Positions 3,001 to 12,000 of a DNA stretch of 43,128 bases are shown here, in pieces. Source of the stretch: Coriobacteriales bacterium. Its GTDB lineage: Bacteria > Actinomycetota > Coriobacteriia > Coriobacteriales > UBA8131. The position numbers were made by a program. Numbering within the stretch: position 1 is the stretch's first letter; every line of letters starts with the position of its first letter. The DNA lies in NCBI GenBank assembly GCA_031263105.1, contig JAISGJ010000136.1, positions 1-43,128 on the forward strand. Reading direction: 5' to 3'.

Positions 3001-6000
3001 GCGCTTGGCGCTTGGCGAGTCCGCCTGCAGCTGGTCGAGAACAGACTGCAGGAAATGGGGACCCGCAGTCACATCGACAACAGCGAACCGCTTTGAGTCC
3101 AGCGTGTCGCGCACATCGGTAAGGAGCGCGGTCTTGCCCGATCCCCTGATTCCTGAAACCACGGTGACCCGGTTGGGGTCGTTGGGGTTGTCCAAGCCAC
3201 AGAGGAAGTCGCGAACGATGTAGTCACGACCGATAAAGTACTCAGGGCGTTTGCCGAACTGTGGATGAAACGGATTTGCTGCCAGCGCCTCCATGCTGTC
3301 GCCTGCCTTTCACGACCTCGATACTTCAGGTAGTTTTCATCGATAGTTTATCGAAGTTTCGTTATTCTAGCAAATTTTCGGCATCGGTAACGATGATGTA
3401 TCACCTGACACGCGAAAGCTGATCGTCTTCTAGTCCAGCTGCTGGCGGCGGACGAGGTCGGCGAAGAGGCCGCCTTGGGCCACGAGATCGTCGTAGCTGC
3501 CGTCCTCGGCGATGGCACCGTCCTCCAGCACGACGATGCGGTCGGCCTCCTTGATGGTGGAGAGGCGGTGGGCCACGATGATGCGGGTGCTCCTGAGCGC
3601 CGCGAGGGACTCGGAGACCTGCCGCTGCGTGATGTTGTCGAGTGCGCTCGTCGCCTCGTCGAACATGAGGATGCTCGGCTTCGACGCTATCGCGCGCGCT
3701 ATCATGATGCGCTGCTTCTGGCCGCCGGAAAGCCCGCCGGAGCCTTCGCTCACCATGGTCCGCATCCCCATGGGCATGGCGCGGATGTCGGCGGCGACCC
3801 CCGCCATCTCGGCGGCCTCCCAGGCCTCCTTGAGCGTGATCTGCGGCGCGGCGATGCCGATGTTGGAGAAGATGTCGCCCTGGAACAGGTCGCCGGTCTG
3901 CAGGACGACGCCGATGTTGCCCCTGAGAGACTTCAGGTCGAGCTTGCCCATGTCCTTCTCGTCATAGTATATCGCGCCTGCCTGGGGCGCCTCGAAGCCG
4001 AGGAGCAGCCGCAGCAGGGTGGACTTCCCGCAGCCGGTCTTGCCCACCAGGGCAAGGTACTCGCCCCGCCTGATGGTCAGATCCAGATTGTCGAGGACAG
4101 GCGGCGCGTCCTTCTCGTAGGCGAAGGAGACCCCCTCGATACGAATGGAGCCGCCCAGGGAGCGCAGTATCTCCTTGCTCTCCCCCAGCTCGGACGGCTC
4201 TTCGAGCAGGGGCTTTGCAATCTCAAGGATAGGCTTGATGTTCGCCATGGTGCCCACGATGCCGACGATCGGGATGAGTGCGCCGGAGACCTGCCCGAAG
4301 GCCGTCATGAAGGCGAAGTACTGCGGGACGTCCACGCCAGAGGTCGCCGCGACGAAATAGATGAACAGGAGACCTGCAATCCCCACCACCGCGTTCAGGG
4401 CCGGCATCAGCTTCAGCAGGACAGGCGGGTTGTAGTCGCAGCGCGCCTGCTCCTTGTAGATGTCCGCCCATTTTGCGAAGGCCCGCTTCTCGGCGCCGGA
4501 AAGCCGTAGCTTTTGGATGCCGGAGAACAGCGAGAACACGAGTGCGCTCAAGCGATTGGCAAGCGGCAGCCTCCTGCGCATGAGCGCCTGCTCCAGGCGC
4601 ACGCCCAAAAGCCCCACCGCGACCTGCAAGGCTATGGCGACGATGGCGGGCAGCGCAAGGCTTGGCGCTATGGAGAAGATCTGCGCCACATAGACCACGG
4701 AGAATATCGAGGCGAACGACGTCGTGAAGGCGACGGAGACGACGAGGGACGCGACCGAGCTCAGGTTGTTCATCCGGTTCGACAGGTCGCCTGCGCTGAA
4801 GCCCTTGAAGAAGACCGGCGGCATGTTGATGAGCTTGCCGAAGACGGCGCTCTCCATGACTATCTGCAGCTTGGTGGCGATGCGCGTCTCCGCGAGGCTT
4901 TTCAGGATGCCGAAGAGGATCGTCGAGAGCGAGACCCCCACCAGCAAAGCGGCAATCGCCCCCAGCTCCGAGAGCCGCCCCGAGGGGATCACGTGCGAGA
5001 AGATGAACTCGTTCGCCCAGGGCAGGGCAAGCCCCACGAGCGCCACGGCGACGGTCGCGAGCAGCACCAGGGAGAAGTCAGCCTTCTCGGTGCGCTCGAA
5101 CAGGAACCTGACAATGCCGCGCAAGTCGGTCGCGTCGTTGGGGAGCGGCCGGTAGAAGCAGATCGCGTCCCCTTCGAGCGCCTCTGCGGCCCGGGCGTTC
5201 ATCCTCACCTTCTGTCGACGCCCGTAATCGAAGAAGCGGTAGCCGCTCAACGTGGGGACGAGCGCCACATAGCCTCCCGCCTTGGTCTTGCACAGCATCG
5301 CCTCACTCGCGTTCTTCCACCACGCGCCCTCAAGCGACACATGGCGCCACATGACGCCGGACGGCCTGAGCAGGCGCTCGAGCCAGTCGTCGCCCTCCGT
5401 GTCGAAGTCGTCGCCCGCGTCGCGGGCGATGCCGTAGAAGCGGCATATCTCATCGACCGCGCTGCGCGTCCTTGTCTGCTCGCTCGACACGTACTCGGAG
5501 GCGACCTTCTCCCCCATGAGGACCGCCGCGAGGTCAAGGGTGGCATTGGTGAGCTGCGCGTCGTCGAAGGCAACCCGGTCGCGGATCTGTTTTTCCTGAA
5601 ATTGCACCATGTGGGTCACTCCATCGAGATCAGCTTCGTGTAGAGCCCTCCGGCGGCAAAGAGCTCCGCGTGTGTGCCGCGTTCCTGCACGCGGCCCTGG
5701 TCCAACACGATGATCTCGTCGGCGTCGCGTATCGTCGAGAGGCGGTGCGCCACGATCACGCAGGTGATGCCGCGCTCCCGTATGGAGCGGATGACCTCGT
5801 ATTCCGTCTTCGCGTCCAAGGCGCTCGTCGCCTCGTCCAAGATGAGCAGGGTGGGGTCCTGGGCCAGCGCGCACGCGATCTCTATCCTTTGGCGCTGCCC
5901 GCCCGAGAAGTTCTTGCCGCCCTCGGAGACCGTGTCGTTGTAGCCCCGTGGGCGCCGCACGATCTCCTCGTGTATCGCGGCGTCACGCGCCGCGAGGATG

Positions 6001-9000: not shown

Positions 9001-12000
9001 GCGTCGGAGCGCCCGCTGCCAGAAAACACGCATGCACACGCGTGATCACCCCGGCCGTTCCCTTCTCCACCTCCAATCGCAGGGCAGACGCAGACGCCGC
9101 CGCCCGCGACCTGCTCAAGCTCGTCTTCCGAGAGCTCCGCTGAGAGCTCCTCGATTTCTCCCATGAGCGCCTTGGCCTTCTCTACCTTCTGTGTGTCCGT
9201 CATGCTGGTTCCCTCCTTGCAGTTGATCGATTGAAACCTGTACTGCTGTTCCGCCCTGCCCCGGGCAATCCCAAGAGATCACCCGGAGCCTGCGGCACTG
9301 ACGCCCGCCGCCGCCTCGCGTATCCGCTCGGCGTATTATGTCTGACGACAGAGGAAATCGTTATTATTTCCCCGCACCTAGCATTGAACAGCCGCAAACA
9401 GGGCTGAGCTCGCCGCCGCCGCCGCCGCCGCCGGCGGAACCGCACGTGCCGGCACCGTCGGCCCCGTCAGCTCCAAACCCGCCGCTGCTGCAGGCACAGC
9501 GCAGATTGCCCGGATTCGATAAAGACCCTGGGCTTGTGGTGCCCGCGCCAAAGGCAGCACAAAAACACTCGCCGCCCTGATCGGTCGCGCTGCCATAACC
9601 GCTCGCCGCGCAGTCGCACGCACCGCCGCCCGCGACCTGTTCAAGCTCGTCTTCCGAGAGCTCCTCCGAAAGCTCCTCGACCTCCTCGGCGAGGGCTTCG
9701 ACCTTCTCCACCTTCTCTGTGTCTGTCATGACATTCCTTTCTCTCATATCTTTCGACCCCTGAAGACCGAGATCATCATCAAGCTCACCCGTGAGCACCG
9801 CTCACAACTTCACATGGTCCAAGAAGAAGCATCCGAGGGATTTCACAAAATAGAAAGCATGGTGCACGCGGTGCCGCCGCCACCGCCGGAACCCGCGTTG
9901 CCGCCAGCAGCGGCAATCATACCGGGGAGGGCGCACCCAGGGCCGGCAGTTTCGCCCCCGGACCCGCTCCCTGAGCAGGCGCAACGCAGGTGGTCTGGAT
10001 CCGATGAATCGGCGACTGTGGTGCCTGCGCCAAGGGCGGAGCAGGTGCATCGGCCGCCCTTGTCGGTCGCGCCGCCGTAGCCGCTCCCTGTGCAGTTGCA
10101 CGCGGCACCGCCCGCGACCTGTTCAAGCTCGTCTTCCGAGAGCTCCTCCGAAAGCTTCTCGACCTCCTCGGCGAGGGCTTCGACCTTCTCGGCCTTCTCT
10201 GTGTCTGTCATGGTGATGCCTCCTTTTCTTTTGAAATCAACCGATGGGAGGACGGGTCGGGTGACCCATCCTCTTTTTGCCTCCTTTTGCTCGCTCCTTC
10301 GTCGCGCTTCACTGACGCCGCATCAATACCTCCCGCCGCTGTCGCAGTCTCATATATCCGCTCGGCAAAGCCGCCGCGAAGTATCAGGCAGAAGCCCTCG
10401 TCGGGCGCCATGAGGTCGTCGGGGTGGTCCACCAGCGCAGAGGCGCGGCAGCCGGCGCCGCAGACGAGGCGCTGCTCGCACGTTTGACAGCGCTCGTTGT
10501 GCGCAAGGTAGTCCTTGAGGCGCGTGTCGATGAAGCCCATGTAGTACGAGTCGCTCAGGCACTGCGCGAGGCTCATGTCCTCGAGTCCCGGGAAGTCCTG
10601 TTGTATGTCCATACCGGAAAGCGCCATGCAGGGAAGCACCTTGCCGTCGGCGGCGATATACATGACCTGACGCGCGTGGCCGCATACGCACTGGGCCATA
10701 AGGGCCGTCTCGTCGCCCCCGCAGGACTTCTGCGCGGGTATCTGAAACGCAGGGTCGCCCCTCCTCGCGTAGAAGGCCCCGCCGAGCATGACGTTCATCG
10801 GCTGGCCGTCCTCGTAGTAGTGCGGGATGTAGTCGAGATAGGCCTCGAGCGTCTCCTCGAGGGACAGGTCGTCGTCGCCCGCGTTCTGCGCCCAGGCGCC
10901 CGTCTTGCCCGCAGGGTTCGTCTTGATGTGGGCGACGCCGAGCCCCGCGAGGTGGTTGATGCTCTCGCGCAGCGTGCCCTTGTTGCGCTGGTGCAAGGTG
11001 AGCTCCGCCCCCAACGGGAAGCCGCGCTCATGGCAGAGCGCGAGCGCACGGTTCACCTCCCGCTCCGCACCCTCGACGCCGCGCAGCCAGTCGTGGAAGC
11101 CCACGCCGTCGAAGCTCATGTTGAACTCCGGGCGGATGCCGCGCGCATCGAAGCCGTCGAGCAGCTCCGGCGTGACGAGCTTGCCGTTGGAGTAGACGGT
11201 CGTGATGCGGATGCGGTAGGCGAGCAGACGGTCGATGATCTGCCAGAAGTCCTTCCTGACCAGTGGCTCGCCCCCGGTGATCGAGACCTCGCGGATGCCG
11301 CAGCCCGCTATCTCGTCGGCTATGCTCAGGCACTTCTCCGTGGAGAGCTGGCCGTACTTGGCGTCCGGTGCCGACATGTAGCAGTGGCGGCAGCGGTAGT
11401 TGCAGTGCCCCGTGATCGACCAGTGGGCCGTGCGCATGAAGCGGGAGTCGAAGCGGCGGTATCTCTGCCATGCGTCCAGCCTGCTGCCCGGGGCGCACTC
11501 GCTGACGATCCCGCTCCCAGCAAGCTTCTCGACGGTGGGGTGCAGCCGTTCGGGGATGTGCTCCATGCCTATCTCGCCGTCGCAGCAGCTCAGGGCCTCG
11601 AAGGCATCGGCATCCAAGAATGACACGCCGTAGCTTGGGGTGAACAGCGCGAAGGGGAGCCTCTGCCAGCCCCTCAGCGCATAGCCCTTGTTCAGGATGT
11701 AGCTTGTCACAATATGGCTTCAAGCGGCAATCTGCTGTCTTTTACGGTGCCATCTTCGAGATACACCACGGGGGCATTGAGTTCGAACGGCAGGCCGCCT
11801 GCCACCTGCTCGAGCTCCTCCTCCGTGAGCTCCTTCGAGAGCTGCTTGACCTCCTCGATGAGAGCCTTGATCCTTGCCACCTTCTCTGTGTCAGTCATAG
11901 TTCCCGCTCCTTTTCTCCTAGCTGGCGTACTGGGCGTCGAGCTCGCGGGCGAGCAGGGCGTTCTTCTGGTTCTTCACGATGCGCTCAAGGTGCGTGAGGA

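Follow-up and report, generated by a model that had tools for sequence, protein, structure and literature searches.

The termite-gut actinobacterium analysed here carries a RiPP cluster whose product, we judge with somewhat better than even confidence, is a sactipeptide-like peptide with tandem bicyclic Cys–Gly knots made by one maturase. The survey's finding had called it a new scaffold. The motif C-x-C-x3-G-x-G has a close precedent in StsA and BlaA, so we would rather describe the product as a new version of a known cross-link motif, repeated in tandem and made by a maturase clade that lacks a characterised member. The thioether chemistry is a guess, better founded than in the survey, and we infer the bond type, connectivity, cleavage site and function of the product. 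If the reading is true, this is a widespread peptide variant, with its motif kept beside maturase relatives across phyla.

The window is the whole stretch of DNA analysed (43,128 nucleotides). It equals contig C217 1–43128, and the coordinates of both are identical. The ORFs of the locus (3430–11898, minus strand) were as the survey had claimed, and the two further leader copies it reported were found at 230–517 and on contig C191. The features are as follows.

230–517, plus strand: outlying precursor, 95 aa, with the GG leader common to the locus precursors and a core with three C-x-C-x3-G-x-G units
3430–5610, minus strand: ABC2, exporter permease/ATPase without a peptidase domain (TIGR03797 685.8 bits, cut-off 709.4; ABC_membrane and ABC_tran)
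5616–7829, minus strand: ABC1, C39 peptidase/permease/ATPase exporter (TIGR03796 896.4 bits, cut-off 853.3; Peptidase_C39 112.9 bits)
7858–8403, minus strand: short HlyD-like membrane accessory protein, 181 aa (TIGR03794 42.2 bits, cut-off 156)
8439–8729, minus strand: Cys-rich precursor, 96 aa, three units
8934–9203, minus strand: Cys-rich precursor, 89 aa, three units and a C-terminal Cys
9364–9729, minus strand: Cys-rich precursor, 121 aa, four units and one lone Cys
9843–10211, minus strand: Cys-rich precursor, 122 aa, three units and two lone Cys
10208–11710, minus strand: radical SAM/SPASM peptide maturase, 500 aa
11707–11898, minus strand: Cys-free peptide, 63 aa, with the leader common to the precursors
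Contig C191, 5803–6015: seventh precursor

Seven precursor genes with the shared leader are thus present in the genome, five of them in the locus. The start of precursor 9843–10211 overlaps the maturase stop by 4 nt, and the stop of the Cys-free peptide overlaps the maturase start by 4 nt. A scan of 13 ORFs between 230 and 14719 turned up no further candidate for a modification enzyme. The neighbouring PepN was seen in none of 76 related loci. Logan contigs of run X1 covered 7800–12000 with zero differences and broke at the repeated leaders.

The exporter genes agreed with the NHLP/Nif11-type C39 pair that had been claimed, ABC1 scoring 896 bits over 853 and ABC2 686 under 709. The ABC1 translation contains an ECGAAS stretch, which we take to be the catalytic Cys motif; ABC1 is presumed to cut the leader after Gly–Gly and to export the peptide. 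The likely start of ABC2 is the ATG at 5610, and a longer GTG ORF from 5874 overlaps ABC1. The TIGR03794 match of the HlyD-like protein is restricted to the first 61 profile positions. Its homologues lie directly upstream of ABC1 in eight of nine related loci examined (phmmer E 1.5e-17 to 3.6e-14). C39-bearing ABC1 homologues were found in 14 of 76 loci, many of which end prematurely.

The shared 35-residue double-glycine leader was borne out by pattern search and alignment. The leader end E-Q-V-A-G-G, searched as a degenerate pattern, occurs at five minus-strand sites (8626, 9100, 9626, 10108 and 11795; expected 0.01), and 19 of 35 leader positions are invariant among the precursors. We propose that it is a shortened Nif11-type leader. 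Against the Nif11 leader profile it scores 16–17 bits (cut-off 32.3) and matches in the last third only, and 6 of 10 tested precursors of maturase relatives exceed that cut-off. The Cys-free peptide cannot be a thioether substrate, which counts against the favoured reading. A Cys-free peptide with the same leader also occupies this position in locus L001.

The survey had described (CxC)3 cores. The CxC pairs are real, but that motif is incomplete: in all five window cores that contain Cys, x3-GxG comes after every CxC, giving the repeat unit C-x-C-x3-G-x-G, with three or four units per core. The first Cys of each CxC lies at residue 38, 55/56 and 72–81, and also at 112 in one peptide. The 6–9 Cys per core stood, whereas the 15–28 Gly reported evidently refer to whole peptides; the cores hold 12–26. 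Linkers between modules are variable and rich in Gly, Asp and Ser. For each of the five cores, 0 of 20000 residue shuffles reached the observed number of units. In six frames, the whole genome contains 99 units in 5,129,436 residues.

The maturase has an N-terminal RRE-like domain (residues 1–90), the CxxxCxxC motif (C103/C107/C110), a complete 7-Cys SPASM motif (C343, C361, C408, C411, C417, C421 and C441) and a disordered C-terminal tail (481–500). Its Radical_SAM domain scored 69.9 bits and its SPASM domain 19.5 bits, just below the 21.5 cut-off. Across 35 maturase relatives, neither the radical SAM motif nor any of the seven SPASM cysteines varies. The best NCBIfam matches were ScmE (96.8 bits), NirJ2 (89.6), StsB (89.4) and PapB (46.5), and none came near its cut-off (340–625). 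This agrees with the survey, in which several RiPP precursors share one radical SAM/SPASM enzyme that lies outside the curated families. Membership in the StsB family (89.4 bits vs 625), the PapB family NF047865 (46.5 vs 340) and the curated Nif11-associated radical SAM family TIGR04103 (67.8 vs 725) was rejected.

By sequence, the best solved relative of the maturase is the sactisynthase SkfB (E 6.5e-13). Its AlphaFold 2 model (pLDDT 87.3) matched anSME (Z 23.8), SkfB (23.0), ChlB (22.7), SuiB (22.6) and the ranthisynthase CteB (21.9); neighbours of equal Z include the non-thioether enzymes anSME, SuiB, ChlB and PqqE. The N-terminal domain folded alone had no PDB match at E≤0.001. A BLASTP alignment with the StsB-like enzyme of locus L077, which adjoins a CGCGCSC...G-rich peptide and a PqqD-like protein, gave 23% identity over 409 residues. 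Through this alignment, three of the six StsB residues lying close to the catalytic site are shared (Y, T and S); the other three differ (Y173, M362 and A363 vs I174, K338 and L339 in StsB). The low identity and the three differences count against a sactionine reading, as do the enzyme's place outside every characterised sactisynthase family, the non-thioether neighbours at equal Z and the missing PDB match of the N-terminal domain.

Modelling suggests that the N-terminal RRE-like domain binds the leader. The complex of the maturase with precursor 8439–8729 scored 0.73, and the best of three controls scored 0.00; of 157 solved complexes 116 attain that mark, and of 215 mismatched pairs 2 do. 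Runs agreed on at least 37% of contacts, with a partner pLDDT of 49. In the modelled interface, leader residues 1–33 contact maturase residues 16–20 and 31–53. Since SuiB–SuiA and ChlB–ChlA complexes have been solved, the pass may reflect likeness to them rather than this pair.

The survey's count of 1872 maturase homologues (E≤1e-3, 8000 scored) was reproduced. They do occur in the gut, as it had noted, but reach beyond Clostridia to bins of Coriobacteriia, Synergistota, Spirochaetota and Selenomonadales, which come from rumen, rabbit and other guts. Whether relatives also adjoin CxC peptides was checked, and they do: peptides with at least two units, usually three copies, lie beside relatives of 36–79% identity in 19 of 76 fetched loci. 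Sixteen of these 19, and the window, have peptides with at least three units; many of the 19 have Nif11-type leaders, and L012 holds 12 precursors with at least three units. In a tree of 74 maturases, all 19 motif-labelled rows fall within a 46-row side. The label changes nine times (shuffled mean 17.0), a value as low in 0 of 500 shuffles.

This co-travel of enzyme and motif across phyla speaks against a very improbable explanation, in which the peptides would be exported without modification, as class II double-glycine bacteriocins, and the radical SAM gene would be unrelated or inactive. The Cys-free peptide with the shared leader would need no Cys chemistry, and a C39 exporter alone suffices for class II peptides. 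That explanation also has to face the intact, invariant cluster-binding cysteines, the 4-nt overlaps on both flanks of the enzyme gene and a modelled leader–enzyme interface that beats its controls.

Among 133 distinct candidate cores beside maturase relatives, the frequency of Gly after any Cys was 0.51 at +4, 0.67 at +6 and 0.48 at +8, against a background of 0.18 and 0.08–0.24 at positions preceding Cys. Only Cys and Gly are conserved; the x positions vary, with hydrophobics common at x4/x5 (V 43, L 22). Few or no units were present in 87 of the 133 cores, and extra lone Cys in 22 of 37 cores with at least three units; both counts weigh against the favoured reading. Where cores lack a full unit (184 Cys), Gly reached 0.45 at +4 and 0.29 at +6.

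The +6 peak suits Cys1–Gly7 and Cys3–Gly9 links equally well. Thioethers from Cys might be in-line or crossed, or of ranthipeptide type to beta or gamma carbons of x4–x6 with Gly just a flexible turn, which we regard as unlikely. PapB forms in-line i to i+4 Cys–Asp rings on repeated CX3D, and CteB is a structural neighbour. Precord et al. (PMC10288494) also liken non-hairpin sactisynthases to ranthisynthases. On the other side, x4–x6 are variable (V, P, A, S, F, L, G and M) and thus offer no fixed side-chain acceptor, the PapB profile score is far below its cut-off, and the excess of +4 over +6 without full units fits an inner Cys–Gly+4 link.

A fixed Cys-to-Gly spacing on one side, even at lone Cys, is what a Cys–Gly partnership predicts; metal sites or epimerisation have no obvious need for it. 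This weighs against another radical SAM reaction (epimerisation, C–C or C–O cross-linking, methylation or anSME-like Cys oxidation) that leaves CxC free for disulfides or metal and gives a Cys-rich metal-binding or redox peptide. We consider this reaction quite unlikely, and the published motif most like the window's, CxC...GxG, has proven sactionines. The attractions of this alternative are that no curated family assigns a chemistry, that structural neighbours include anSME, SuiB, PqqE and the epimerase EpeE (Z 17.8–23.8), that x4/x5 are often hydrophobic and that metallothionein-like sites are brought to mind by CxC pairs in a Gly-rich peptide.

In the favoured sactipeptide-like reading, the RRE-like domain would bind the leader common to all seven peptides, and the enzyme would then modify a core made up of three or four modules in tandem. 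The most likely chemistry is that of StsA and BlaA, a sactionine bond from each Cys sulfur to the alpha-carbon of a Gly further downstream: Gly at +4 for the inner Cys and Gly at +8 for the outer one. Each module would thereby close into a small bicyclic, nested knot; three or four such knots in a row, with 6–8 thioethers, would form the product. The C39 domain of ABC1 would cleave after Gly–Gly, and ABC1, ABC2 and the HlyD-like protein would export the product. Multi-precursor loci with hypervariable cores are usually expected to make a diversified bacteriocin or signal. The window loop, one residue shorter (x3) than the x4 of StsA and BlaA, counts against this reading, and we know of no precedent for an i to i+4 Cys–Gly sactionine ring. 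The conserved Gly could give flexibility instead of acting as acceptor; to our knowledge, sactisynthases are not restricted to Gly acceptors.

The nearest precedents are the sactipeptide system StsA/StsB/StsC of Streptomyces sparsogenes and the related BlaA/BlaB. According to Precord et al. 2023 (PMC10288494), StsA has the motif CxCxCx4GxGxG with StsB sactionines Cys2–Gly15, Cys4–Gly13 and Cys6–Gly11, and BlaA has CxCx4GxG with BlaB sactionines Cys13–Gly22 and Cys15–Gly20; the links run from Cys to the alpha-carbon of Gly and form nested hairpins. A radical SAM/SPASM maturase and alternating Cys followed by alternating Gly are shared with the window, and the thioethers are proven there and putative here. 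Unlike these systems, the window has an x3 loop and a module repeated three or four times per peptide, Nif11/double-glycine leaders, a C39 ABC exporter and many precursors per locus; hosts of window-type loci are anaerobic gut bacteria. The leader-binding domain is fused to the maturase, whereas the PqqD-like protein of the StsB system is separate.

In freyrasin/PapB and other ranthipeptides, one SPASM enzyme makes many small tandem thioether rings. The i to i+4 ring size of freyrasin equals that proposed for the inner Cys–Gly link. The freyrasin acceptor is an Asp side-chain carbon with one Cys per ring, whereas here Cys are paired and the sole conserved partner is Gly, which offers only an alpha-carbon. 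Nif11/NHLP leader systems (TIGR03796/03797/03794) resemble the window in ABC1, which lies above the curated cut-off, and in the prochlorosin-type logic of one enzyme, many precursors, a conserved leader and variable cores. The window departs from them in having, as modification enzyme, a radical SAM protein from outside the curated Nif11-associated families, a 181-aa short form as HlyD partner and a leader that stays at 16–17 bits vs 32.3.

No sequence relation to ruminococcin C was found for the window system. According to PMC9389541 and PMC10470295, RumC1-5 of Ruminococcus gnavus are encoded by five tandem precursor genes and form a double hairpin with four sactionines. The tandem precursors and, putatively, more than one thioether hairpin per peptide are shared with the window, as are a gut anaerobe host and a SPASM radical SAM maturase. 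RumC differs in having two maturases and another Cys pattern and acceptors, and it is matured by host trypsin, unlike the double-glycine C39 exporter of the window.

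The window is the entire contig C217, part of a draft genome of 2.9 Mb (64.5% G+C, 86% complete, 6.5% contamination). The survey's finding was a locus of leader-sharing peptides with CxC repeats around a radical SAM/SPASM enzyme, read as a RiPP cluster. The locus was confirmed as real and far beyond chance, and its RiPP reading is sound. Its features, with one further precursor elsewhere in the genome, are as follows.

11707-11898, minus strand: Cys-free peptide, 63 aa, first in transcription order
10208-11710, minus strand: radical SAM/SPASM enzyme, 500 aa, second in transcription order
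9843-10211, 9364-9729, 8934-9203 and 8439-8729, minus strand: four Cys- and Gly-rich peptides, in transcription order after the enzyme
7858-8403, minus strand: HlyD-like protein, 181 aa
5616-7829, minus strand: C39-peptidase ABC transporter (ABC1)
3430-5610, minus strand: second ABC transporter (ABC2), last in transcription order
230-517, plus strand: sixth leader-bearing peptide
C191:5803-6015 (another contig of the genome), plus strand: seventh precursor, an orphan with no maturase nearby; shared leader, one core unit

The enzyme gene overlaps the peptide gene on each side by 4 nt. Neither Rfam nor tRNA searches of the window gave a match. A promoter and terminator scan of 7700-12100 returned one promoter-like site (0.5 expected) and eight terminator-like sites (2.6 expected), none of them convincingly placed. 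The genome holds no second maturase; the next tblastn matches had 25.6% and 30.9% identity (69 and 61 bits). An aminopeptidase N gene (11918-14719) was considered as a cluster member that trims the leader and was rejected, as it was present in 0 of 76 related loci.

All seven peptides carry the leader MTDT(E/Q)K...ELS.ELSEDELEQ(V/I)AGG, with 19 of 35 positions invariant. The CxC repeats of the survey are present, but every CxC is followed by three variable residues and then GxG, which the survey had overlooked; the repeating unit is C-x-C-x3-G-x-G. Among the five Cys-bearing cores in the window, four have three units and one has four. For each core, none of 20000 residue shuffles reached the observed number, and all six frames of the genome (5.1 million residues) contain 99 units. 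Two close relatives of these peptides in the protein database have three units and four to five units, respectively. An ORF at C161:172-450 (minus strand) has two units and no recognisable leader; it may be a remnant or chance. A Cys-free peptide with the shared leader and a different core also precedes the enzyme in the locus with the closest enzyme relative (L001). The Cys-free peptide may be an unmodified, co-exported peptide.

The leader was compared with known leader models. Against TIGR03798 (Nif11-like leader), the window precursors scored 16.1-17.2 bits, below the 32.3 cut-off, and the match was limited to profile positions 45-68, the last third of the model. Precursors of relatives passed this cut-off, with a full Nif11-type leader, in 6 of 10 tested. 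For TIGR04149 (Bacteroidales-type GG-leader radical SAM-modified RiPP), the best scores were 22.9 bits (9843-10211) and 18.9 bits (9364-9729), under the cut-off of 25 bits; the match runs from the end of the leader into the start of the core. The SCIFF models gave no match to the window precursors at E<=0.01.

The survey had left unchecked whether relatives of the maturase also sit beside such peptides. A scan with one genome per species gave 76 loci with an enzyme relative (36-79% identity), and 19 of them had adjoining peptides with at least two units. The hosts of the 76 loci were Coriobacteriales, Oscillospiraceae, Lachnospiraceae, Christensenellaceae, Synergistaceae, Selenomonadaceae, Spirochaetaceae and further groups, most of them of gut origin (rumen, rabbit and others). 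Many loci are cut by contig ends; L001, at 79% identity, stops 281 nt past the enzyme, inside a precursor. A crude regular-expression screen, for which a leader had to end in Gly-Gly, be rich in D/E/K there and share the strand of the enzyme, yielded 145 candidate precursors from the window and 53 loci. Among them are 133 distinct cores, 110 with Cys; 87 cores had no unit, 6 had one, 3 had two, 35 had three and 2 had four. Cores with at least three units were found in 16 loci plus the window, and a single Marvinbryantia locus holds twelve such cores. The largest array seen was at L012:7417-11301 in a Marvinbryantia bin, where 12-13 tandem three-unit precursors with short leaders follow the maturase.

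A quick maximum-likelihood tree (LG+G4) was built from 74 enzymes, excluding the truncated L059, L070 and L075. Because it was quick and had some long branches, it was used for label clustering alone. All 19 motif-labelled rows fell on one 46-row side. The labels changed 9 times on the tree, against a mean of 17 after shuffling, and none of 500 shuffles was as low. More than 120 maturase clusters were counted at a minimum of 48% identity. A more distant maturase branch (L045-L073, 27 of 74 rows; Selenomonadaceae, Veillonellaceae, Anaerovoracaceae and Eggerthellaceae) adjoins Nif11-leader peptides that have 2-5 lone Cys and no CxC pairs, every such Cys standing in a C-x3-G-x-G setting of hydrophobic character; these peptides look like a sister precursor type. 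The maturases of L004 (labelled Bacteroidaceae) and L027 (Mailhella) are almost identical to Oscillospiraceae/Christensenellaceae and Butyrivibrio ones (L013/L011 and L074), with branch lengths of 0.003-0.12, which points to recent transfer or mis-binned contigs.

The spacing of Cys and Gly was analyzed across the family. In cores with at least three units, the first unit begins two residues past Gly-Gly in 29 of 37, the third is preceded by Arg in 27 of 37, and units lie 11-34 residues apart (mode 17). A lone extra Cys occurs in 22 of the 37 multi-unit cores. The x positions vary widely, and conservation within the core is confined to Cys and Gly. After any Cys in the 133 cores, the Gly frequency was 0.51 at +4, 0.67 at +6 and 0.48 at +8, compared with a background of 0.18 and 0.08-0.24 at positions before Cys. 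Gly at +4 was still 0.45 in cores without a full unit (184 Cys); this suggests C-x3-G as the minimal element and CxCx3GxG as a doubling of it. The alpha-carbon is the sole carbon of Gly open to linking.

The survey's family assignments were reproduced on repeat. The enzyme scored 69.9 bits for Radical_SAM and 19.5 bits for SPASM, just under the 21.5 cut-off. The CxxxCxxC motif (C103, C107, C110) and seven SPASM Cys (C343, C361, C408, C411, C417, C421, C441) were invariant in 35 relatives. One mark of the sactipeptide class is a radical SAM enzyme with CxxxCxxC and a SPASM/twitch domain, encoded beside the precursor, and this arrangement was found here. The PapB ranthisynthase family (NF047865) gave 46.5 bits, below its cut-off of 340. 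By sequence, the nearest solved protein was the sactisynthase SkfB (E 6.5e-13). In the AlphaFold 2 model (pLDDT 87.3), the structural neighbours were tied: anSME (Z 23.8), SkfB (23.0), ChlB (22.7), SuiB (22.6), CteB (21.9) and PqqE (21.4). The modelled fold says that it would be a peptide-modifying SPASM enzyme and nothing more specific.

In the whole-model alignment, residues 1-90 of the enzyme superpose on the N-terminal domains of SuiB and SkfB; the SuiB alignment spans model residues 2-444 and includes the SuiB N-terminal domain. Folded alone (pLDDT 87.9), the N-terminal domain had no PDB match at E<=0.001. Its weak top rows (E 0.09-0.9) were mostly RRE-bearing RiPP enzymes (TruD, SuiB, MccB, lasso B1, PbtF, PqqD). 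There was no PqqD Pfam match. A complex model of the enzyme with the precursor at 8439-8729 scored 0.73 (runs 0.77, 0.73 and 0.72), and the best of three controls scored 0.00; 116 of 157 solved complexes reach the mark for this score, as do 2 of 215 mismatched pairs. Agreement between runs was at least 37%, and the partner had a pLDDT of 49. In the model, leader residues 1-33 lie on enzyme residues 16-20 and 31-53. As similar complexes have already been solved, the model supports leader binding by likeness, short of proof.

For export, the genes were compared with models of the NHLP/Nif11 bacteriocin export system. ABC1 scored 896.4 bits for TIGR03796, above the 853.3 cut-off, and ABC2 scored 685.8 bits for TIGR03797, just below the 709.4 cut-off. 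The HlyD-like protein scored 42.2 bits for TIGR03794 against a cut-off of 156.2, covering only the first 61 of 421 profile positions. Of 9 related loci examined, 8 have a homologue of this short protein immediately ahead of ABC1. C39-bearing ABC1 homologues were found in 14 of the 76 loci.

The assembly was compared with sequencing runs. The runs holding the stretch were DNA only, all from one termite-gut metagenome study, with no RNA run among them. At 7800-12000 there were zero differences from the Logan contigs of one run (X1), which break at the repeated leaders. The first ~80 bases (1-82) are almost pure C, likely a sequencing or assembly artefact. The outlying precursor starts only 150 bases past this C-rich end, so the cluster may extend beyond the contig. 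Between that precursor and the exporter lie two P-loop ATPase genes on the minus strand (745-2037 and 2206-3294; AAA_14 with DUF4143, and AAA_16/AAA_22) that show no evident tie to the cluster. At 8769-8937, two precursor genes are separated by a near-palindrome of ~170 bp, whose 82-nt arms are 79% complementary and lie 5 nt from each other. Its depth in run X1 was 4-8 times that of its surroundings, with many loose ends. Nearly complete copies occur on C179, C120, C242 and C186, and ~20 other contigs carry matches of ~30 bp to its ends. This spacer resembles a MITE-like mobile repeat that entered the precursor array.

A second, separate bacteriocin-type locus lies at 33904-39660. Its middle is low in G+C (47-51% at 36-38 kb vs 64% for the genome), and it also holds two small membrane proteins.

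33904-36234: C39 ABC transporter, 31% identical to ABC1
36444-36830: peptide of 128 aa; double-glycine-like site ...VEGG, hydrophobic tail rich in Gly and Ala
38536-39660: full-length HlyD protein

For the chemistry of the main locus, we slightly favour sactionine-type Cys-Gly linking in tandem knots as the most likely reading. A thioether from Cys sulfur to alpha-carbon is predicted in the mature peptide, the conserved Cys...Gly spacing being the sole pointer to it. A broader proposal is tentative, and we lean a little against it as a whole: one uncharacterised radical SAM clade in several phyla of anaerobic gut bacteria may make the 9-residue C-x-C-x3-G-x-G into a nested bicyclic bis-sactionine knot, with an inner ring from i to i+4, 3-5 times per peptide. 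With hypervariable linkers and as many as twelve precursors each, such loci would then amount to a combinatorial library made by nature, of 'knots on a string'; this scaffold, modular and hyperstable, would be one hitherto undescribed. Should the inference on the chemistry hold, gut anaerobes (rumen, rabbit, termite and others) would harbour a large and untouched family of RiPPs. Its logic would be simple and portable, with a single enzyme, a short leader and a cassette of 9 residues, and the cassette could serve to build compact thioether knots into designed peptides. That each locus has many variable precursors suggests ecological roles in gut communities, in competition or signalling.

No paper on the motif or the maturase clade was found in the literature searched; the family may be catalogued in He et al. 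2022, the JACS 2022 RaS-RiPP atlas or the PDF supplement of Precord et al. (logos of six new groups). The precursor table of Precord et al. (3,421 rows; PMC10288494) returned no family member for the motif strings and genus names probed. The family is not mentioned in the consulted portions of a Hungate1000 bacteriocin survey (PMC13289728) and a review of RaS-RiPPs of the human microbiome (PMC9389541).

The closest known systems are those of StsA, from Streptomyces sparsogenes, and the related BlaA. StsB was among the enzyme's three best NCBIfam matches; the score for its family (NF045574) was 89.4 bits against a cut-off of 625, which places the enzyme outside that family. None of 401 genomes of the phylum sample had a member above the StsB cut-off; the best (278.8 bits) was L077, which served as a stand-in for true StsB members. 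This StsABC-like sactipeptide cluster in an actinobacterial genome (G202:C288:4509-7746) encodes, besides the radical SAM enzyme of 279 bits, a peptide ending ...CGCGCSCDGGMGGGGGGG... (CGCGCSC...G-rich) and a 91-aa PqqD-like protein. By BLASTP, the two enzymes were 23% identical over 409 residues (E 6e-18). At six 'catalytic site proximity' positions, mapped by motif and pairwise alignment and not by the method of Precord et al., our enzyme has Y111, T145, Y173, S199, M362 and A363. Precord et al. (PMC10288494) give Y113, T147, I174, S199, K338 and L339 for StsB, and F, F, T, S, H and Q for the ranthisynthase CteB. Three positions are thus identical with StsB and one with CteB.

In the same paper, StsB and a discrete RRE protein, StsC, install three nested sactionines in the StsA core CxCxCx4GxGxG (Cys2-Gly15, Cys4-Gly13 and Cys6-Gly11; PMC10288494). 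The related BlaA has Cys13-Gly22 and Cys15-Gly20, as cited there by Precord et al. from He et al. 2022 (PMC10288494). L077 has both the StsA-type core and the PqqD-like gene. In contrast to such systems with their discrete PqqD-like RRE gene, the core here is a repeated CxCx3GxG, and no PqqD-like ORF was recognised among 13 ORFs scanned. The window unit keeps the pattern of StsA and BlaA, its loop having one residue fewer. The links within a unit would, by analogy, be Cys3-Gly7 and Cys1-Gly9. The proposed inner ring, i to i+4 here vs i to i+5 in StsA and BlaA, would be one residue tighter. The Cys...Gly sactionine logic of Streptomyces (StsA) may be far more widespread, via enzymes that sequence families do not tie to it. 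The system is not a new class; on the favoured reading it would be a variant of sactionine-type Cys-Gly linking.
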